A stretch of 64,000 bases of DNA from Candidatus Altimarinota bacterium (GTDB lineage: Bacteria; Patescibacteriota; Gracilibacteria; BD1-5; UBA6164), in the NCBI GenBank assembly GCA_027066455.1, contig JAMONT010000083.1:4052-68051 (forward strand). The letters are read 5' to 3'. The position numbers and the translations under genes are program-made. The notes below the pieces were generated by a model, which ran no database searches, was not told where the DNA came from, and worked only from the letters and a program-made list of their open reading frames with translations. The stretch's first letter is position 1, and each line of letters begins with the position of its first letter. Below are positions 10,766 to 63,621 of the stretch, piece by piece.

Positions 10766-10825
10766 AATTTTTATTTTTTTTAAGAAAATATTAAGGAAAT
10801 TTTATAAAATAAAAAACCTCATAAT

Positions 10826-10872
10826 GAAGCCTCTTTCCTTTTGACCAAAAGGAGAGAATTCAAGAGAGGAAT
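10826..10872 (+). repeat. GC-rich palindromic element, intergenic copy
   Basis: gaagcctctttccttttgaccaaaaggagagaattcaagagaggaa. Ends about 7 nt from the stop codon (10879-10881) of the minus-strand gene. Confidence 0.75.
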
Positions 10873-10878
10873 ATTATT

Positions 10879-11280
10879 TTATAAACCTAATTGTGCTTTT
10901 ATATCATCAATAGCTCAAGCATCTTGTTGTTCAACTTCTTTTTTTGCTTTTTCAGCAATATAAACTTCTCCTAATTGAATCCATTCTTTTTTTTGTTTTG
11001 TTAATAACTTTTTTATATCTTCTGGATGTTTTCCAGCTAATTCTCTGAATTTTTGTCTTTCTTCAACAAAAACTTTTGTAAGTTCATCAAATTGAAATTG
11101 AGAAAGTCCAGGTTGTTCATCATTTTTAGCAACTGCATCAATAACTCTTTTTTTCTCATCAGTATTCAAAGAAAGAGAATGTTTTAATAAATCACAAAAT
11201 TCTTCCACATTAACAACAACATCATCTCTATGATTTTTTAATAATGCTAATATTATTTCATTAACTTCTATATCTGTCAT
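10879..11280 (-). CDS. Hypothetical protein
   Basis: Track ORF 10915-11280 extended through one TGA to TAA at 10879-10881 (adds GAIDDIKAQLGL). Confidence 0.6.
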
Positions 11281-11363
11281 AATTTTACTTGATTAAAAAA
11301 TATTTTATACCTTTTTATAATATGAAAAAAAGCTAAATAGTCAAAAAAATTTTAAAAAAAAAA

Positions 11364-11410
11364 TTCCCCACTTGAATTCTCCCCTTTTGTAAAAAAAGGG
11401 AAGAGGCACA
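11364..11410 (-). repeat. GC-rich palindromic element, intergenic copy in reverse orientation
   Basis: The reverse complement reads tgtgcctcttccctttttttacaaaaggggagaattcaagtggggaa. Confidence 0.7.
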
Positions 11411-11427
11411 TAATTAATTACAATAAT

Positions 11428-11475
11428 TTGTAGCCCCCTTCCTTTTGACCAAAAGGAAGGGATTCAGGGAAGGAA
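11428..11475 (+). repeat. GC-rich palindromic element, intergenic copy
   Basis: tttgtagcccccttccttttgaccaaaaggaagggattcagggaaggaa. Ends 4 nt from the stop codon 11480-11482 of the beta-propeller gene. Confidence 0.8.
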
Positions 11476-11479
11476 TTTT

Positions 11480-13876
11480 TTATTTCATTTCAACATCAGA
11501 AATTTTTTCAAAAGTTTCCATATTATTTTCAAGTATTTTTTTATTTGAAATAGAATAAATATTATCTCAAATATATAAAGCTCTATTTATAAAAGAATCT
11601 CTTAATTGCCATCTTTTATTTGCTATATAAGTTCAAATACCAGAATCTTGATAACAATATTCAGGAATATAATTACTTTTTTGTGGACAATATTCTCTTC
11701 AATCAAGCAAAATTCTACATCTTTCTTTTTCTTCTTTTTGTTTTATAAAATCATCACATTTTACTTTTCTTTCATTTTCTAAAGCTTTATAATCAATATG
11801 ACTAATTCTTCATAATTTTTTTATTCCATAATCTTTATCTATTTTAATAGAATATAATCCTGCAAAAAAATCTATATTTTTATAAGAATCTTTATTTTCA
11901 TTTTTTGTAATTTCTACAGGTAAAAGTAAAGTTTTTTTATCTTTATTAAAAATAAACATTCTTGGATTATTGGTAGCTTCACTTCTACTTCCAGCATCTC
12001 ACATTGTCAAAGTGTGTAATTGTTTTACTTCTATAAAACCTTTTTTATCAGATTTTGAATTTTTAGGATTTTCACATTTTTGTACACATTGCATTGTGCA
12101 AATATCAGCTCAAGAAGGACAAGCAGAAGCACATTCATTTTTTACACAAGAACTAGGACAACTGTTAAAAGAAAATTGACTACATTCTTGACTTACACTA
12201 TTTGTTAATTTATCATAATTTATTTGGTATAAATCTAATTTTAATCATCATTGTCTAGTTCTTCAATTAGTTTCAAAAGTATCATAACCTAATCAAATTA
12301 TATGATTTTTATCATAAGGATGAAGATAACTTGAATAACCAGGAATTTTTAATTCTCAAATAACTTTTGGTTTAGATTCATCTTTTAAATCAATTACATA
12401 AAATGGGTCTATATCCATAAAAGTAACCAAAAATAATTTATCTCACATAAATCTAGAAGATTTGAAATTTTCATCTTTTCAAAGTCCTCAAAGACTTCAA
12501 AATAATTTCAGATTTTTATCTAAAATATAAACTCCTGTTTCTCTTTCAGGATATCTTTTTTGTGTAATAATTCTGAAATTATCTCATCTTTCATCCATAG
12601 AATATTGAGTCAAAGGATTTCAAGGAATAATTGTAGAAGTTTGATATTTTATATTATTTTTAGAAATATTCAATTTATGAATTAAAGAATTTTCTCAAGC
12701 CTCAAAATAAGGCATTATACAACGAGCAAAAGGTGGACAACTTACTTGATTATTATTGTAAAGTCTGTCTGTAATATAAAGATTTTTTAAACTCATATAA
12801 ATTTCTGTAGTATTTCAAACAACAACTTTTGTTTTAACAGGAGCATCAGAAATTTCTGTATCTACAACTGAAATAATATTATAACTTGGAGAAAAATCAT
12901 ATTTTTTTAAAGTATCTTTTGTTGGCAAAGAATATTCTATTTCACTACAATTGGCAACATTTCAAGAACTTATATTAAAAGGAAATTTTTTTCATTTTAA
13001 AACTAAATTTTGTTTAGAAGAATTTTTTGTTCAATTTACTTCAATTTTTCTAGGAATTATTCCATCTCTAGGAATTATTATATCATCAACATTTTTAAAA
13101 TTATGAAAAGGAATATTAAAAGAATTAGAAGAAATTACATAAAGATATTTTCCTATTTTTCTTGATTTTGCTAATCTTCCATCAACAACATAAAGTTTTA
13201 ATAATTTTGGTTTTACAATATTTGTAGTATCAAAAACTATAACATAAGTTTTATCTTGATAACTTCTCCAATAATTATTTTTTATTTTATTATATCTAGA
13301 ATATCAACTTGATAAAATAGTTAATCTATTTTTTCCTAAATATAAAACTGGAGAATTAAAATTTTTTGGAATTTTTATTTTTTTAATAATTTTTAGTTTA
13401 TTTGAAACAGAAGTTATATAAACAGCTTTATTTTTAGAATTATAATAATAAATATATTTTCCATCAGTTTTTACTATTTCAGATTCATCAACTCAATCTA
13501 CTTGAGTATTTGTTCTTGAAAAATTTCAATCACTAGTTCTAGAAGCAGAAGTAGGAACAGCATTTCAAGTAGATTCAAGTTGTAGAAGAGTTTCACTAAA
13601 ATCATCAGATGCTATAGTATCTATCATTCTATGTTTATAATTATATGAATATTTATTTTTATTTAATTTCCAGTAAGTTTTTATATATTTTTCCATTACT
13701 GATTCTAGATTTTCACAAGATTTGAAAGTTTGCAATTTAAAACTTTCTGAAATTTCAGAATTTTCTTGTTTATCTAAAGCATCAATGATTTGATTATCAT
13801 CAATTTGAGCAAAACTTGTAGAACTAATTATAAATAAAGCCAAAGCACCCAAAAAAACTTTTTTGATATTTGCCAT
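11480..13876 (-). CDS. Secreted beta-propeller domain protein (PF09826-like)
   Basis: Signal peptide MANIKKVFLGALALFIISSTSFAQ. Motifs TNTQVDGVDESEIVKTDGKYIYY and SSRFMGDKLFLVTFMDIDPFYVIDLKDESKPKVIGELKIPGYSSYLHPY. In frame with track ORF 13565-13909. ATG 13876 is preferred over the track TTG start. Confidence 0.75.
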
Positions 13877-13908
13877 AATTTTTTTAATTAAAAAATAAGA
13901 TATTCTCA

Positions 13909-13970
13909 ATTATAAGAATATCTTTTTTTAAAGCAAATTTTTAATGTGAAGATTTTGTGAAGAAATTTTT
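13909..13970 (-). promoter_or_regulatory. Conserved promoter cassette, copy 1
   Basis: Minus-strand reading: TTCACA-aaatc-TTCACA, then TTGCTT (-35), a 16 nt spacer, and TATAAT (-10, 13909-13914). About 33 nt upstream of ATG 13876. Confidence 0.6.
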
Positions 13971-23400: not shown

Positions 23401-23974
23401 ATGTTCAAAGTTTTTCAAAAAATATTTCAGTAGGACTTGATTCATAAAGTATTTTTTCTTTTGAAATTATTGTAGCCCCTTTCTCCCTATAAGGGAGAGA
23501 GGATTCAGGAGAGAGGGGATTTTCTTTTTTTATAGTTTCAAATCATTCATCTGGTAAATCATTAATTCCAATTTTTTCTTCTTCCAAAGATTTTGTTCAA
23601 AAACCAATTTTATCTAATTTAGTTTCAATATTTTCTTTTAATTCCAAAGATTTATATTTTATATCTTCATTTTTTAATTCATCTACTTTACTTTTTATTT
23701 TATCAATTTCTATATTTTCTTTTTTTTCATTTTTTACAAAACTATCATTATTTTTAGTTTTTTTATTTTCAATTGCATTTGCAAAAAATTCTAATCTTTC
23801 TTTTATAAAAGTACTAGAAAATAAACTTTTTTTTATAATTAAAATAAGAAAAATAGTAGTTATGAAAAAAATAAATTCTCATAAAAAATAAAAAAATCAT
23901 GAAAAAAATCCAATAATAACTATTCAAAGTATTATTGATATAACCCAAGCAAATCTATTTAGTAATTTAAACAT
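20405..23974 (-). CDS. DUF2339-like polytopic membrane protein (about 1190 codons)
   Basis: N-terminal TM helix plus coiled coil, then several dozen hydrophobic helices. The C-terminal soluble domain equals track ORF 20432-20719 plus GTIKFEKKD. Length is divisible by 3 and no TAA/TAG was met in manual translation. Confidence 0.65.
21100..21136 (+). repeat. GC-rich palindromic element, variant copy, in-frame in the DUF2339-like gene
   Basis: cttccttttccaaaggaag-tcccgaagggga-tggatt. Read on the minus strand as NNPSPSGLPLEKEE. Confidence 0.6.
21492..21529 (+). repeat. GC-rich palindromic element, diverged copy, in-frame in the DUF2339-like gene
   Basis: ctccttcccttaggcttaagggaaggttgggaagggtt. 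Read on the minus strand as NPSQPSLKPKGRS. Confidence 0.6.
23470..23519 (+). repeat. GC-rich palindromic element, consensus-like copy, in-frame in the DUF2339-like gene
   Basis: ttgtagcccctttctccctataagggagagaggattcaggagagagggga. Read on the minus strand as ENPLSPESSLPYREKGATII. Confidence 0.85.
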
Positions 23975-24019: not shown

Positions 24020-24067
24020 TGTAGCCTCTTTCTCCCCACAAGGGAGAGAGAATTCAAGAGAGAGGGA
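24020..24067 (+). repeat. GC-rich palindromic element, intergenic copy
   Basis: tgtagcctctttctccccacaagggagagagaattcaagagagaggga. Abuts the stop codon 24070-24072 of the TSP3-repeat gene. Confidence 0.8.
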
Positions 24068-24069
24068 AA

Positions 24070-25731
24070 TTATTTCAATTTTACAGCCATTTTGAATATT
24101 GCAATTCAGAAAAACACTATAACTAAAGACAAAAGTATCATAAAAATATTTTTATTTGATTCAAAAAATCTATCATCTTTTTTATCACAAACATCTCAAA
24201 TTCAATCCAAATCAATATCACTTTGAAGAGGATTATAATCATAAGGACAATTATCATTTTTTGCTAAAATTTTATCTAAATCAGAATCTTCACAAGCATC
24301 TCAAATCCCATTATTATCCGAATCTTTTTGAAGAGGATTATAAATATTTATACAATTATCTTTTATTCAACTTATTCAATCAGAGTCAGAATCTTCACAA
24401 ATATCTCAAACTCAATTTTTATTTTCATCAAGTTGATCAGAATTTTGAATATTTTTACAATTATCACAAACATCTCAAATTCCATCTTTATCAAAATCCT
24501 CTTGCTTAGGATTAGCCATTTCTTCACAATTATCTTGAGAATTAATTATTTTATCTCAATCTTTGTCATTTTCTTTTAAAAATTTTTCTTTTTCCTCAGT
24601 AACATCTCCAATTCAATTATTATTTTTATCTAATTGTCTTGGATTATAATAAATTGAATTATCACATTTATTTCAAATATTATCCAAATCATCATCTTTT
24701 TGAAGAGGGTTAGCAATATTTATACAATTGTCTAATTGATCAAAAATTCAATCAGAATCCTTATCAAATTCACATTTATCTCATACTCAATTTCTGTTTA
24801 TATCTTCTTGCTTAGGATTATAAACATTTATACAATTATCTTTTTTTCAAATTATAGAGTCTCAATCATCATCACTACACAAATCTCCAATTCAATCAGC
24901 ATTTTTATCAAATTGTTTTGGGTTAGCTATTTTTGGACAATTATCTTCTGAATCAGGAATTTTATCTAGGTCAAAATCTTCTACTTTATTTGGATTAAAA
25001 TTTGGATTTTCTTTTAATTCTAAAAAAATAGTTTTTGTATTTTTATTTAAATTATATTCTCAATAATTATTTTTTAAATTTATATAATTATTTTTACAAA
25101 TATTTTTAGCATAAGCTTTTATTTCTCAAATAGTTTTTACTAAATAAATATAATTTTTTGAAATAAATTTTAGTTCAAAAATTTTAATTTTTTCAGGAGG
25201 AGTAATATGTTTTACTGTTGTATTAAAAGAAATTTTTAAAAATTTGAAATCATAAGTGTTTAATTTTTTTTCTGGAACAAAAAAATATTTTTCTCAATCT
25301 TTAGAAATTTCAATATGAGCATTTCTATAATTTGCTTTATATTCAAAATTAAAATCAAAACTTCAAGCTTTTAATATTTTATCAAATTCTAAAAATATAG
25401 AATTTTTATTTTTTTCCTCATCATAAATTAAAAAAGTTTTATAATTTTCATCACTCAAATATTCTAAATTTCAAAATAAATTTTTTATTTTAAAATCCAA
25501 AATTCATCAATAATTTTTATATAATTTATGAGGAATAATTTTATTATCAGAAATAAAAGTATCTATTTTTTTTGTAGAATTTATTTTTAAAGTTCATTTT
25601 TCTTGTTTTAGAATTCAAAAAAATTCATAACAATTTTCTTTAAAATTTTCAGGAATTTTTTTGAATTCTTGTGCAAAACTAGAATTTATAAATAAAAAAA
25701 ATATTGAAATTAGAACTATTAATTTTTTCAT
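24070..25731 (-). CDS. Secreted thrombospondin type-3 (calcium-binding) repeat protein with C-terminal TM anchor
   Basis: 554 codons. Signal peptide MKKLIVLISIFFLFINSSFA. About eight DNCxxxxNPxQxDxDxDGIGDxCD repeats. C-terminal IFMILLSLVIVFFGIAIF helix. Confidence 0.8.
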
Positions 25732-30572: not shown

Positions 30573-30619
30573 TGTAGCCCCTTTCCCTTTGGCTAAAGGG
30601 AAAGGATTCAGGATAGGGA
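30573..30619 (+). repeat. GC-rich palindromic element, intergenic copy
   Basis: tgtagcccctttccctttggctaaagggaaaggattcaggataggga, in the divergent intergenic region 24 nt upstream of ATG 30644. Confidence 0.8.
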
Positions 30620-30643
30620 TAATATTAAATTAAAAAACTACTT

Positions 30644-32050
30644 ATGAAATACATTGTTGCAATATTTTTCTTTTTATTACCATTTCATGCTTTTTTGGTA
30701 ACTTTTTTAAAATGTAAAATTGGCTTAAATACTAATTTTTTAAGATTTTGGAAAGAAATTTTTTTGCTTAGTTTTTTTATTTATACTATTTTTTATGTTT
30801 TAAAAAGATATAAATATAAACTTTCAAAAATTTATGAAAATAATTATATATTGTGAACAATTACAACTTTTTCTTTGATTTCATTATTTTTTATATTTTT
30901 TCCTTTTAATTTTTTTGATTATTGGTGAGCTTTACAAAAAGGTGAAAATGGTTTTTTAGTTATTACAAAAGAATTTTTATCTTCTGATAATATGAAAGCT
31001 GCTTTTTTAGGTTTTAAATATGATGTTTTTTTCTTACTTGCAATAATTATTTGATTTTATTTACCTGTTTTTAGAAAAAATATTTCACTTTATTTAGCTT
31101 CAGTTTTTTCAGCTATTTTTATTATATTAATTATTTTTATTCCAGTTTATTTTTCTTGATATATTTTAGAATTTTATAGCTTTTTTGGTTATTCAACAGA
31201 AGTTTCAACTTATAAAGCAAATACTTGTTTAGCTTATTCTCAAAATGTAGAATGAGGACATAATAGATTTCAAGCAACTTTTTGAGGGCCTATTAGGTTT
31301 TCAGTTTTTTTAGTTGTCTTTTACCTATTATATATAGCTTTTATTTTTCAAAAAAATATTAAAAATTTGAAGTTAAAGTATTTACTTATTATTTTTCCAA
31401 GTATTTTATTTTTTATAGCATTATTTTCAGCATATACAAAAACAGCTATTTTATGATTTTTTGTTTGAGCTTCTGTTTTTGCTTATTTGGTTTATAGAGT
31501 AAAATTTTCTAAAACTATTTCAAAAACTTATTTAACTTTTGCTTGAATTTTAGCTTCAATACCAATTATTACTTTACTTTATATTAAAAGAGATTTATTT
31601 TTGCATCTTTGAGCTATTATAAATAGATTTGAAAATTTGAAAATTTCTTTTGAAATGCTTGGGTATAATATGTTTGGTCATTGACTTGGAATTGCTGGTC
31701 CTGCTAGTCAAGTTGGAAATTTAATAAATTATGATGCACCAGAACAATCTATTTATTTTTCAGGAAAAATTCATAAATTTCTTCCAGAAAATTGGTATGT
31801 ACAAATACTTTTAGAACAATGAATTTTGTGATTTTCATTTTTTATTTGAATAATTCTTATGTTATGAGTTTATCTTTATAGGATTGTAAAAAATAGAAGA
31901 GATTATTTAAGTATTTGATTTTTTTCAGCTTTTATAGCACTTATTTTTATGGCCAATTTTACTCACTCTTTTGAAGAATCAGCAACAAGTTATTTATTTT
32001 TTCTTTTGATTTGAGCTTATTTATGAGGAAAAATAATCAGAAGTAAATAG
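30644..32050 (+). CDS. O-antigen ligase/polymerase-like (Wzy_C family) membrane protein
   Basis: 469 codons with at least 10 hydrophobic helices. Loop with ...NRFQATFGGPIRF... and ...GHGLGIAGPASQVG... typical of O-antigen ligase-like proteins. Confidence 0.7.
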
Positions 32051-32157
32051 TATGCAAATAAAAATTTAAAAAAACTAAAAAAAAAATTTGCATAATAAAA
32101 AAAATTTTATATAATGCCTGAGCTTTATTTTTAGAAAATAAAGTTTTTCAGAAAAAT

Positions 32158-40054: not shown

Positions 40055-40837
40055 TTAAATCATAATACTTCCAGATTCCATTAATTTATATAAAATAGAA
40101 TTAGTATTTTTATAATTTCAGATAAAAAGTTTTCTTGCTTCTATAGTTTCAGCTTTTGAAATATTTCCAGAATGTCTTTTACTTCAAAGTAATTCAGATT
40201 TATTTAATTTTTCAAAATTTTTATAAAAATTATTAGAACTAAGTAAATATGAAATATCATCATACTTTCTTAAATATTTTTTAAAAAACTCTACATAATC
40301 TCATCAACTTCATCATTCATTTACTATTTTCATAAGTGCAAAAAGTCTTCAAGCACTTAAAATATATCATTTATTTACAACTAAATGTAAGGCTTTTTCA
40401 AGAGGTTCATTTATTCTAAGAATTGTTTGACCTTCTTTTTTTGCAAATTTTCTAAAATTTTTTGTGATAATATTTTCTATAAATAAATCAAGAATTTTGT
40501 GATAACCTCAAACTACAGAAAATCAATCTAAATCCATTTTTATAACATTTGCATAATTTATTTCACTTGTTATAAGAGCTTCAATAGTTCCATTTGGAGC
40601 ATTTAAAAGTAAAATTTCTCAAAAATATTCTATAATATTATCTTTTATATTTTCTTCCAAATTTTTATTTTTGTCTAATCATTCAACTTTTTCAATTGCA
40701 ATTTGGTCAATTTTATTTTTTACCTCTTTATGCATCCAGCTTTCAGCTACTTTTATTTTTTTTTCTAATATTCTTATTTTTTGCATTTCTGCTAAAAGCT
40801 TTTTTTTACATAAAGCTATTAATTCTGAATTTTCCAT
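40055..40837 (-). CDS. Hypothetical protein
   Basis: Track ORF 40679-40921 continued through TGA codons to TAA 40055-40057. Internal ATG 40837 (MENSELIAL...) is preferred because the upstream 28 codons are hydrophobic low-complexity sequence. Confidence 0.45.
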
Positions 40838-44134: not shown

Positions 44135-44842
44135 TTAAATTTTATCAAAACAAATTATATATTCTTCAAATGAAGAATCTCTACAAGCCAAAGGTTTATA
44201 AGTTTTATAGCTTTTAAATCTTTTTTTTATTTCTTTTTGTAAATCTCTAAAATCTTCTCAAACAAAAACTTTTAAAAGCATATTTCATCATTTTTTCAAA
44301 AAATTATCAGAAAATTTACAAATTTCTATATTTAATTCAACAGAAGCATATTGGTCAACATCTTTTCTCCCAGTTGTATTTGGAGCAATATCACTAGTTA
44401 TTAAATCAAATTGTTTTAATTCATATTTTTTTGTAGCCCCTTTCTCCCCAATAGGGAGAGAGGATTCAGGAGAGAGGGCTTTTATTTTTTCTCTTAATTT
44501 TTCAAAATCAAAAATATCACAAACAATAGTTTTTATATTTTTATTTCAAAAACTTTTTATTTCCTTTAAATCAACTCAAATAATAATTTTATTTTTTACA
44601 ATTTGACTAATTAATTGCAAAAAACTACCAGGAGCTGCTCATATATCTATTATATTCATTTCTGGTTTTATAAGTTCAAATCTTTTTTGAATTTCTTCTA
44701 ATTTATAAATACTTCTTGCTCTAAAACCAGCTTTTTGAGCTGCAATTGCATAAGCATCTTTTACAACAAATTGTCACTTTTTTGTATTTCTTTTTCTATG
44801 AAAACCAGTTTTTCCTTTTCCATTTTTTATATTTTTTTTCAT
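44135..44842 (-). CDS. rlmE: 23S rRNA 2'-O-ribose methyltransferase RlmE/FtsJ
   Basis: ...RARSIYKLEEIQKRFELIKPEMNIIDIGAAPGSFLQ...DLITSDIAPNTTGRKDVDQ...NMLLKVFVGEDF... 236 codons including a 17-aa insert encoded by a repeat element. Confidence 0.85.
44432..44478 (+). repeat. GC-rich palindromic element, consensus-like copy, in-frame inside rlmE
   Basis: tgtagcccctttctccccaatagggagagaggattcaggagagaggg. Read on the minus strand as ALSPESSLPIGEKGAT. Confidence 0.85.
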
Positions 44843-44852
44843 TTTTTTACAA

Positions 44853-45569
44853 CTAATAAATAAAAATAGCTCCATCATCATCAGCTAAAAAAATTTTTCA
44901 TTTTTCATCAAAAACTATTCATTCCCAAGAAGCTCAAGATAATTTTTTTGTTTCTATAATTTTTTCATTTTCTAAATCATACTTAAATATACTATCATTT
45001 TTATCTGATAAAATATATAAATTATTTTCATAAAAAGTCATTCAACTCAAATCTTCATAATCCAAATCAAAAACTTTTTCTAATTTTAGATTTTTATTAT
45101 CTTTTTTTATTTTAAATTTTAATAAATTATTTTTTTTATTTTGAGTAGATATATAAAAATATTCTCCTGTGTAAGCTAATCATTCAGCACCAGATTTTTT
45201 ATTAAAATATTTCTTTCTATCTTTTTTATCTAAATCTAAAAGAAAATCTCATACAATTTCCAGATTAGAAGAATTTATTTTTATCAAATTTCAAGAATCT
45301 TCTAAAAGTAAATAAATTTTATTATTTTTTTCATCACAAACAATTCCTTCAAAATCATAATTTCAAATATTTTTTTCTTGTAATTTTTTTCACAACTTAT
45401 CTATTTCATAAACTTTTCATTCATCATTTGCAACAAAAAAACTATTAGTATTTTGCATATAACAAATTCAAGAAGCTTCAGAAATTTTTGCAATTTTTTT
45501 ATATTTATTTGTAACATTATTACAAGAATATAAAAAAAGTACAAATATTAAAAATATTATTTTTTTCAT
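44853..45569 (-). CDS. Lipoprotein, possibly a YjiK/SdiA-regulated-type beta-propeller
   Basis: Lipobox LFLYSC. Recurring ...EASGI..., ...FEGIV..., ...AEGLA..., ...WEGIVF... blade-like segments. 239 codons. Confidence 0.45.
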
Positions 45570-50624: not shown

Positions 50625-52508
50625 TTATTTTGTAAGTAAATTATAATATCACATAAATTTATAACCAACTTTTTCCATTTCTATTCAAACAACTTGAGCA
50701 TAAAAACAAGTTAAATTATTATCACAAATAGTCACAATTTCTACATCTTTTGGAATTTGTTTAATAGATTCTGCCCATTTATTTTTTGACAAATAAACCA
50801 AAGGAATATTAAAACTTCATTTTAAATGAGAATTATCAAAAACTTCTTTTTTTCTAACATCAATTAAATAAATTCAATTTTTGTATTTTTTTTCTAAAAT
50901 ATTTTTTGAAAATTTGTATTTATATCTAGGTTTTTTATAAACTTTAAAAACATCTTTTTCTCACTTATAGTTTCATTTTTCTTTTATCCATCAACTTACT
51001 CAATTTTCTAAAAATCTCACATCAAATCATTTTGTTTTCAAAAATTCAGCAACTTCTATTGATTTTGTTTTTTCCCAAGTATAAACAACTATAATTTTCT
51101 TTTTATCCAATTTATCATATCCACCATTTATTAAATCAGCAAATCTGATAAACACACTTCCATCAATATAACCAGCCTTTCTTTCTATATTTTCTCTTGC
51201 ATCTAAAAGTAAATATTTTTTATTTTTTGTTTTTAAAATATTTTTTAATTCTATATTTTTAATTGATTTTATATTTATTTTTTTATTTATTTTTTTATTT
51301 TCTTCTTTTTTTTCTAAAGGAGTAATTTTTATAGTTTTACTTGTTTTTATCTTAAATTTTCAATTTTTTAATTTAATTAATTCTTTCAAAACTAAATAAT
51401 TTTTTAGTCAATTTTTATCATAAATTTCTAAATCAATAAAATAATTATTTTTAGTATTTTTCTTTAAGTAAACTTTATTTACAACTATTTTTTTTACATC
51501 TTTATACCAATTTTTATACTTTTCAAAACTAGTTTTTTTAGCTGAATTTTCATAAGCTTTTTTTAATTCTTTTTTTACTATACTATTATAATGATTTCTA
51601 AAAAATTTTTCCTCACTACTTTGCTTTACAGCCCCTTTTTCCACACCCAGGAGAGAGGATTCAGGAGAGAGGGTTTTTTTGGTTTCTGCTTTTTTTCACT
51701 TCACCAAAATTATTTTTCTTTTACTTTTTGCAAGCTCTTTTTTATAATTTTCTAGTTCTTTTTTATAATCTTGTTTTTCTTTTTTAGATAATGATTTTTC
51801 ATTTTCTATTCAAAAAAAATCATCTTCTTCATCTTCAATATTAATAGAAAAAATATCTGTTTTAGTATTTGTTTTAGCTTTTTCTAATTCTAATTCTCTT
51901 AATCTTTTTCTATTTTTTAATTTTTGAGAAATACTATATTCTTCAACTAAATTTTCAGAAAAATCTCAAGAATTTACTTTATTAATGCTTTTATCAATAT
52001 TAATTAAATCTTGTTGTAATCTTTTTATATTTGTTTGAATTTCATTACTTTTCAAAATATTTTCATTTGTACTAAAAGTGTCTTTTTCTATTTTTTTAGA
52101 ATTTTCTATTTTTTCTTCAAGTAATTTAAATTTAGAAGTTTGTTTTTCTAATTCTATTTGTAAAAGTTTTCTTCTAGCTTTTTCACTATTAAACTTTATT
52201 TTTATTGAAGTTGTTCACTTTTTTTCTTCATTTTTCAAATTTAATATTTGATTTTTTTGAAAATTTAAATCAAGTAAAAATGAAAATCATAATGAAATCA
52301 AAATAATAACAGAAAAGAAAAAGTTTTTTTTATTTCTTTCTATATATTTTGTTTTTGTATAAAAGTGAAAAGTAATTCATATAAAAAAAGTCAAAGCAAT
52401 AAAATATAACCAAAAATTTGATTTTGGTTCAAAATTATTTATATTTTCTGCATTAGAAAAGGAAATAAATAAAAAGAATATTAAAAATATTTTTATTAAT
52501 TTAATCAT
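50625..52508 (-). CDS. Membrane-anchored coiled-coil protein with two C-terminal rhodanese-like domains
   Basis: 628 codons. Start, stop and track ORF 51408-51644 share one frame. ...LLLDARENIERKAGYIDGSVFI... and ...YLIDVRKKEVFDNSHLKGSFNIP...ICDNNLTCFYA... are rhodanese signatures. Confidence 0.6.
51629..51674 (+). repeat. GC-rich palindromic element, consensus-like copy inside the rhodanese-protein gene
   Basis: acagcccctttttccacacccaggagagaggattcaggagagaggg. The track ORF start (MEKGAV...) lies inside it. Confidence 0.8.
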
Positions 52509-63527: not shown

Positions 63528-63571
63528 TTTTTATAATGTTAATTTTATTTTTTTCAAAATTTCAATATTTT

Positions 63572-63620
63572 TGTAGCCCCTTTCTCCCTATCAGGGAGAG
63601 AGGATTCAGGTGAGAGGGAG
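63572..63620 (+). repeat. GC-rich palindromic element, consensus-like intergenic copy
   Basis: tgtagcccctttctccctatcagggagagaggattcaggtgagagggag. Ends 1 nt from the stop codon 63622-63624 of the tex fragment. Confidence 0.85.
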
Positions 63621-63621
63621 T

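Follow-up and report, generated by a model that had tools for sequence, protein, structure and literature searches.

A dispersed REP/BoxC-like repeat of a Gracilibacteria genome lies in sense orientation against stop codons, a placement consistent with selective survival

The genome of Candidatus Altimarinota bacterium (assembly GCA_027066455.1; GTDB lineage Patescibacteriota, Gracilibacteria, BD1-5, UBA6164) contains a dispersed repeat of about 47 nt whose intergenic copies lie, for the most part, directly after the stop codon of the upstream gene and in the sense orientation. The repeat is described here in a 64,000-nt stretch of contig JAMONT010000083.1 (C83:4052-68051), called the window, and in the genome as a whole (1.49 Mb, 102 contigs, 21 % GC). 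On balance, the placement is best read as that of a repeat akin to the repetitive extragenic palindromic (REP) and BoxC sequences of E. coli that selection, we infer, has filtered into short 3' untranslated spacers, with its orientation fixed relative to transcription.

Under translation table 11, the window contains just 12 open reading frames (ORFs) of at least 100 aa. Under table 25, in which TGA encodes glycine, it fills with long ORFs. TGA makes up 9 % of the codons of a 1,403-aa ORF, which fits glycine and not tryptophan. Genes were called as the longest ORF under table 25, giving 1,343 ORFs and 90 % coding sequence; these are our own calls, with no curated annotation.

Four intergenic copies in the window adjoin the stop codons of minus-strand genes:

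24020..24066, minus strand: intergenic copy of the TT..A subfamily, 3 nt past a stop and 45 nt before the next start (ATG at 23974), with a predicted sense-RNA hairpin of -18 kcal/mol
24070..24072, minus strand: TAA stop of a 553-aa gene (24070..25731) for a TSP_3-repeat protein (Pfam E=4.6e-47)
63572..63618, minus strand: intergenic copy of the CC..G subfamily, 3 nt past the tex stop and 44 nt before the next start codon
63622..63624, minus strand: TAA stop of a 767-aa Tex-like gene with a C-terminal S1 domain; the alignment to relatives reaches 1-5 residues from the end
11429..11476, minus strand: intergenic copy with a CCTTCCTTTTG/CAAAAGGAAGG stem variant, 3 nt past the stop of an 809-aa beta-propeller gene
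11480..11482, minus strand: TAA stop of this 809-aa gene (11480..13909; Beta_propel domain, Pfam E=5e-114)
10825..10872, minus strand: diverged intergenic copy with the head GAAG instead of GTAG, 6 nt past a stop and 59 nt before the start of a comM-like gene
10879..10881, minus strand: TAA stop of a 133-aa gene (10879..11280) that is present in 61/61 genomes of the family; the alignment extends to residue 131-133 of 133 in nearly all

The gaps of 3, 3, 3 and 6 nt follow real stops, as the earlier note on this DNA had described with coordinates that are right to 1-2 nt. All four stops close genes that are open only under table 25. The mRNA-sense strand of all four copies reads CCCTCTCTC...GGCTACA. 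For example, the 24020 copy is CCCTCTCTCT-TGAAT-TCTCTCTCCC-loop-GGGAGAAAGA-GGCTACA on the minus strand. The same sense-strand sequence occurs in three translated copies of the window, and the orientation shared with these copies, which had also been claimed, is confirmed:

23471..23517, minus strand: translated copy in a gene for a DUF2339 membrane protein, encoding the peptide PLSPESSLPYREKGAT
44432..44478, minus strand: translated copy in a 248-aa gene (44135..44881)
51627..51673, minus strand: translated copy in a 627-aa gene (50625..52508)

A profile search of the genome gives 155 matches, of which 135 are full-length. All 135 were classified by gene context:

Inside coding sequences (CDSs): 65 copies, 63 sense and 2 antisense in a doubtful 87-aa ORF; 47 of the sense copies are in one frame, and copies show an even spread along genes
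Overlapping a gene end: 6 copies, 3 of which share a single base with the stop codon
Intergenic: 64 copies; both neighbours are known for 63, and 57 of these are sense and follow a stop

The 63 sense CDS copies keep their ORFs open, and the 47 in the common frame encode LSPESSLP..EKGAT. Among the copies of defined orientation, 120 of 128 are sense to the host or upstream gene (63/65 in CDSs, 57/63 intergenic). Of the 57 sense copies after stops, 51 lie in spacers that run from a stop to a start and 6 in convergent ones. Co-directional spacers contain 55 copies, 51 sense versus 4 antisense, and divergent spacers contain only 2 although they amount to 33 kb in total. Densities derived from these counts and lengths, in copies per kb, are about 0.7 for co-directional, 0.36 for convergent and 0.06 for divergent spacers, and 0.05 for CDSs.

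The distance from the stop to the element has a median of 8 nt; of the 57 copies, 27 begin at 0-8 nt, 37 at no more than 15 nt and 48 at no more than 30 nt. Copy number jumps sharply at the stop codon, from one sense copy in the final 100 nt of all CDSs taken together to 48 over the 30 nt that follow stops. On the other side, the copy closest to a next start codon is 23 nt away and the median is 38 nt. Free spacer has a median of 61 nt in element-bearing spacers and 64 nt in element-free ones. Neither the length nor the sequence of the stretch from stop to element is constant, and the element therefore does not include the stop. The exceptions are a few members of one subfamily, in which the first two A's of the element complete a TAA. 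The frame relation of stop and element, which bears on a read-through idea, is not significant (distances of at most 15 nt split 13:17:7 by phase, counted by hand). Among the roughly 17 intergenic copies that lie 14-38 nt from a stop, nine are preceded, 8-21 nt upstream and still after the stop, by an additional CCCTCTCT-like pyrimidine box (for example C35:1358, C25:11630, C20:2698, C95:2852 and C37:19380). The box may represent a fourth arm, or it may be what an older insertion left behind.

The stop-hugging is real and reproducible. The earlier note proposed comparing distances with random placement across the genome, and they are non-random. When placement is simulated 20,000 times inside each copy's own spacer, 7.8 of the copies in the 51 stop-to-start spacers are expected within 8 nt of the stop under uniform placement and 26 are observed; the simulation maximum is 20. 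If the last 23 nt before the start are forbidden, the expectation rises to 17.4 against the same 26 (P=0.0017). A second set comprises 65 non-redundant copies from about 14 other Gracilibacteria. In this set, the stop is no more than 10 nt away for 11 of 21 sense copies versus 4.4 expected (P=0.0003), and with a 21-nt exclusion 8.7 are expected versus 11 observed, so that the excess is no longer significant (P=0.09). Most of the stop-hugging follows from short spacers and the exclusion zone before the next gene.

The earlier note offered three explanations: a target preference for gene 3' ends, a role after transcription as a 3'-end stabiliser or terminator, and the survival of insertions that just miss the ORF. 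The last is the best supported, by the step at the stop, the absence of copies less than 23 nt from a start, the short spacers and the shrinkage of the excess after exclusion. Under the survival reading, copies would have spread recently through the genome and persisted only where they are harmless. Within genes, they would survive only in frame, mostly as a hydrophilic LSPESSLP..EKGAT loop. Between genes, they would survive only within a transcription unit, after the stop and upstream of either the terminator or the approximately 23 nt needed ahead of a start. The 30S subunit needs roughly 20 nt upstream of the start codon.

The contact with the stop itself is expected under this reading, since the spacers of the compact genome leave about 60 nt and native 3' hairpins also begin 0-8 nt past stops. 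In the same family, native terminator hairpins typically start in this range. Comparison with the tex loci L054-L076 shows a canonical bidirectional terminator, made up of an A-tract, a hairpin and a T-tract, 0-8 nt past the tex stop in many relatives. Among terminator-like hairpins of the window genome, the first 5 nt past stops are the richest bin (75/406, from a detector that is loose in AT-rich DNA). Structures pressed against stops are thus the norm here. With a terminator behind, an element has only a few bases of transcribed, untranslated room. Contact with the stop itself would be tolerated because the first 15 nt of the element are predicted to be unpaired in the mRNA. In the predicted sense-RNA fold, these are the first pyrimidine arm and UGAAU, and the hairpin begins 15-23 nt past the stop, at about 17 nt in the folds. 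The start of the hairpin would therefore lie outside the mRNA held by a terminating ribosome, which would leave no exclusion zone on the stop side.

The G-rich strand of the element has the consensus TTTT-TGYAGCC-YCTTTCTCCC-(4-6 nt loop)-GGGAGAGAGR-ATTCA-RGAGAGAGGG, in which the TGYAGCC head is followed by a pyrimidine arm, the loop, a purine arm, ATTCA and a mirror of the purine arm. The first two arms form a 10-bp hairpin, and 8 of its 10 pairs have changes on both sides across subfamilies, a pattern of covariation. The TG(T/C)AGCC head stands ahead of this hairpin in nearly all copies. The third arm is the mirror image of the second and not its complement, with 88 % identity in register versus 21-66 % when shifted. 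Changes in the second and third arms are coupled at several positions, most clearly at one with 62 C/C and 55 T/T copies and 1 discordant copy. Where the third arm leaves the mirror, T stands opposite an A of the purine arm. With the triplets G·G-C, A·A-T and T·A-T allowed, the three blocks therefore agree with the class II pattern, and the arrangement is that of a class II intrastrand-triplex repeat with a REP-like GTAG head, the triplex itself being putative. The A-to-T deviations are permitted by the purine motif on the G-rich DNA strand and do not fit a pyrimidine-motif triple helix of RNA on the mRNA. Such an RNA triplex is also disfavoured because it needs about seven adjacent protonated C triplets.

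The two main subfamilies differ in their context. The CC..G subfamily, with the peptide LSPESSLP, has 41 copies in CDSs versus 20 between genes, and the TT..A subfamily, with the peptide LSLEFSLP, has 11 versus 41 (Fisher P=1.4e-6). In the window, the copies at 23471, 44432, 51627 and 63572 are of the CC..G type and those at 24020 and 10825 are of the TT..A type. This difference is a sign of selection on the translated copies.

In a search of the window, no Rfam family matches the element. An exact-pattern scan of 185,579 species finds it only in genomes deposited as Candidatus Gracilibacteria or under labels of the candidate phyla radiation (CPR)/Patescibacteria type. Several of the differently labelled contigs that contain it belong to genomes already placed in the same family as the window genome. 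A covariance-model search detects the element in 42 of 201 genomes of the order, and all 42 are in one family, in 15 genera. Some copies contain a second insert of about 47 nt (CAAGTGAAGAAACGAGTG.AACGACTATTCTGAAGTTGGAGTG.AAC) inside the purine arm (C23:12448-12543 and C74:22957-23051), and further loci outside the window are listed with such copies (C3:1477, C35:38538, C42:1254 and C53:28788). A longer translated variant encodes LSPALNSMTHKGPKSSLP. These may represent a nested second element type.

The copies appear to be young insertions. The element follows the tex stop in 0 of 29 orthologous loci in other genomes and the stop of the 133-aa gene in 0 of 19. The alignments of both proteins run to the C-terminus, so the stops are native and the copies came later. 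No match to a Y1 transposase or RAYT (PF01797) is present in the 97.7 %-complete genome, and no reverse transcriptase was found in it. Y1 genes occur in 44 of 96 genomes of the family and in about half of the element-bearing ones, with no visible link to the presence of the element, and none of 12 Y1 loci in the family has a flanking element. A complete genome of the same family (G006) has 29 Y1-transposase matches of the IS200/IS605 type and zero copies of the element. No strain-level empty sites were found: an exact-protein look-up is empty, and a metagenome scan gave only a 54 %-identical relative.

The orientation and the proximity to stops may instead have been set at insertion and not by selection, by a machinery that enters transcribed DNA one way round, with the displaced non-template strand or the A-tracts frequent after TAA stops and ahead of terminators as possible targets. 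On the sense strand, both flanks are rich in A, which makes up 63-88 % at each of the three positions next to the element (background 43 %), the divergent, non-transcribed spacers are nearly empty, and orientation tracks the gene strand in CDSs and spacers alike; the CCCTCTCT-like boxes between stop and element are possibly remnants of earlier insertions at the same place. However, translated copies show no enrichment at the 3' ends of genes, no target-site duplication was found beyond the A-richness, and the stretch between stop and element is variable. The step falls exactly at the stop codon, which is invisible to a mechanism acting on DNA, and no Y1 transposase or reverse transcriptase was found in the genome. 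We regard an insertion-site preference of this kind as unlikely; the target preference for gene 3' ends raised in the earlier note is neither needed nor shown.

In the orientation that is kept, the C-rich strand is the non-template strand and both G-rich purine arms are on the template strand. Selection on the peptide cannot account for this orientation in untranslated spacers. G-rich homopurine tracts block transcription in vitro strictly as the non-template strand, through R-loops (PMC3561996). In the opposite orientation, the element would place a 25-nt G-rich homopurine block on the non-template strand and would impede transcription in the same way. Blockage of transcription by R-loops is proposed as the most likely filter behind the orientation. 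A replication-strand cause was considered and rejected: orientation tracks the gene strand with no extra clustering at the contig level (P=0.76), and strongly biased contigs show only a weak trend against genes on the minority strand (48 versus 3, expected 43.5 versus 7.5, P=0.08). GC skew is dominated by the coding strand (r=-0.96) and cannot place the origin.

Several observations weigh against the survival reading. Survivorship alone leaves the approximately 20:1 orientation bias in untranslated spacers unexplained, so an orientation-dependent cost or an orientation-specific insertion mechanism is needed. The placement rules are looser in the other Gracilibacteria, where co-directional spacers contain 12 reverse versus 21 sense copies and divergent spacers contain 10 copies. 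Reverse copies are also translated there inside long ORFs of 416-745 aa. The reverse copies in spacers and in ORFs both weaken the case for transcription blockage. After the 23-nt exclusion, a skew toward the stop persists in the window genome (median relative position 0.25, KS (Kolmogorov-Smirnov) P=0.0016, Wilcoxon P=0.056), and this residue could be a real positional preference or a function. In long spacers with ample room, copies still lie 0-21 nt from the stop, and many of these spacers have a terminator just behind the element. No transposase partner was found, so mobility is deduced solely from copy number, the near-identity of copies and their absence from orthologous sites. The gene boundaries rest on a crude ORF caller.

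Two copies in the window depart from the common placement:

11363..11411, plus strand: the window's single copy of opposite orientation, antisense to the minus-strand genes on either side and sharing the spacer of 11429-11476
30573..30620, no strand assigned: copy in a divergent spacer, with its G-rich end 23 nt upstream of the ATG at 30644; one of the 2 divergent-spacer copies genome-wide

Among reverse copies of other Gracilibacteria (L009-L028 and L086-L118), the G-rich end is 21-26 nt upstream of a start in 9 of 22, a range that includes the 23 nt of the 30573 copy. These distances reflect either a sharp exclusion boundary or a role in the 5' untranslated region (UTR) or promoter. The reverse translated copies at loci L106, L105, L086 and L009 lie in ORFs of 266-745 aa and give peptides of the form (V/A)ASF..GE(R/K)IQ(E/D)RG. 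Translation in the reverse orientation is essentially absent from the window genome. Within the gene that precedes the 24020 copy, 7 repeats of 105 nt each stand in tandem (24185-24979) and encode thrombospondin type 3 repeats.

A stable hairpin directly past genes is also what a terminator of the upstream gene would look like, and the copy after tex holds the place where relatives have terminators. The anatomy and context do not agree with this role. The hairpin is followed by CUACAAAA and not by a U-tract, and the next 3 nt are 70-88 % A and 4-13 % T on the sense strand. Eleven copies precede a separate, canonical AT-rich hairpin with a T-run by 3-21 nt. A co-directional gene follows 51 of the 57 copies, usually 24-45 nt on, a distance that is probably too short for a new promoter and leader, and 63 copies are transcribed and translated inside genes. 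Factor-dependent termination, in which Rho might have acted on the C-rich leader of the element, lacks its factor, as the genome has no match to Rho (PF07497) in a search whose control was positive in 9 of 14 reference genomes. In E. coli, PIT/BoxC elements are without terminator activity (PMC4666352). The terminator role suggested in the earlier note is thus not borne out, and we consider it highly improbable.

A co-opted 3'-UTR module is a less remote alternative, though still a rather doubtful one. The hairpin past the stop would shield the mRNA from 3'-to-5' decay or insulate cistrons in a Rho-less, AT-rich genome, as certain E. coli REPs have been shown to do. The skew toward the stop that outlasts the 23-nt exclusion, the near-strict sense orientation in co-directional spacers and the dominance of a distinct, mainly TT..A, subfamily between genes are consistent with such a module. 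The predicted sense-RNA hairpin of -15 to -18 kcal/mol also stands out from the other RNA of the genome, which is about 80 % A+U. The copy after tex occupies the position of the terminator hairpin of relatives; in the window (63528-63621), there is no obvious terminator between this copy and the next gene. In E. coli, REP325 stabilises its upstream transcript (bioRxiv 10.64898/2026.03.23.713779). Against a module, no copy is conserved at orthologous positions across genera, as the 0/29 and 0/19 loci show, and many copies are closely followed by a canonical terminator hairpin, which by itself would shield the 3' end. In the third arm, the A-to-T deviations agree with a purine-motif triplex in template-strand DNA and not with a structure of the mRNA. 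The element is also tolerated as coding sequence, and sister genera have looser rules of orientation and placement.

A more specific form of this idea is that the intergenic TT..A subfamily is a domesticated 3'-UTR device of a Rho-less bacterium in which TGA encodes glycine, with the strict co-orientation being functional and not the result of a filter. The GC-rich hairpin, possibly with a triplex in the template DNA, would stand one ribosome footprint past the UAA or UAG. There it would set the stability of the mRNA 3' end or couple and uncouple cistrons, replacing conventional terminator hairpins. We think this improbable. Should the residual pull toward the stop prove functional, the repeat would represent a novel type of 3'-UTR element, found in a lineage whose genetic code is altered.

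Under the preferred reading of survival by selection, a dispersed repeat of the triplex type obeys strict transcription rules: it is kept in sense only, within transcription units and never less than about 23 nt from a start. Its best-studied relative, the BoxC/PIT element of E. coli, has no strand bias and no known function. The 135 copies in one genome, together with the looser sister genomes, provide a data set for asking whether selection in vivo acts against homopurine or triplex DNA on the non-template strand. They also map the tolerance of structured RNA around stop and start codons in CPR bacteria, which cannot be grown alone. Annotators can expect such repeats right after stops and within ORFs, and should label them neither as terminators nor as frameshift artefacts.

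Three known systems resemble the element. The REP, BIME and REPIN sequences of E. coli are likewise short GC-rich hairpins with a GTAG-type head in more than 100 copies per genome. They occupy 3' untranslated spacers where neighbouring genes are in tandem or converge and are almost never found between divergent genes; the corresponding counts here are 55, 6 and 2. Head-to-head inverted doublets, typical of REPINs and BIMEs, are seen in sister genomes. In G049, deposited as the metagenome-assembled genome 'Candidatus Peribacteria' ERP019367_co1_95 and belonging to a sister genus in the same family, elements often form such doublets (C6:3124-3228, 24707-24803, 32035-32134 and 40435-40535), with the sense copy 3-6 nt past a stop in 2 of the 4 (24707 and 40435). 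Liang, Rudd and Deutscher reportedly found in 2015 that REPs near stop codons affect translation of the upstream gene. Tolerance inside transcribed DNA but not near the next start is already known for similar E. coli repeats. Tandem spacers contain about 40 % of the E. coli REPs, convergent spacers 60 % and divergent spacers 1 %, and the REPs act as context-dependent 3'-UTR stabilisers or partial Rho-dependent terminators (bioRxiv 10.64898/2026.03.23.713779). The Rho-linked effects cannot apply to a genome with no Rho. Unlike the extragenic REPs, 65 of the 135 copies here are inside ORFs and the element has a third, mirror arm. In contrast to REP-RAYT systems, no RAYT is present in the window genome, and the Y1 genes of the family lack flanking elements and show no visible link to the element's presence.

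The Rickettsia palindromic elements (RPEs), compared here by description, are dispersed palindromes that occur in frame within genes and in spacers of a small AT-rich genome, as the 63 sense CDS copies and the intergenic copies do here. They are longer, at about 100-150 bp, lack the mirror arm and belong to an unrelated lineage. We know of no stop-proximal, sense-only rule for RPEs.

The BoxC element of E. coli, also known as PIT or TM_ECO (Hoyne/Maher 2000; Holder et al. 2015, PMC4666352), shares the class II order of pyrimidine arm, purine arm and mirror purine arm. Its complementary strand is of class IV, it tolerates one mismatched triplet, and its loops are less conserved than its arms, as in the element described here. 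Both occur in inverted doublets and have no terminator-like anatomy. TM_ECO is always intergenic and has no strand bias (PMC4666352), whereas half of the copies here are coding and their orientation relative to transcription is biased by about 20:1. The sequences are unrelated, with (GA)n-type arms in TM_ECO and G/C-rich arms here; the GTAG head is found here, and the triplex of the present element is predicted from its sequence. The element fails defining features of each of these systems, having no RAYT, not being extragenic and showing a strong strand bias, and it is therefore filed as a variant of the REP/BoxC kind.

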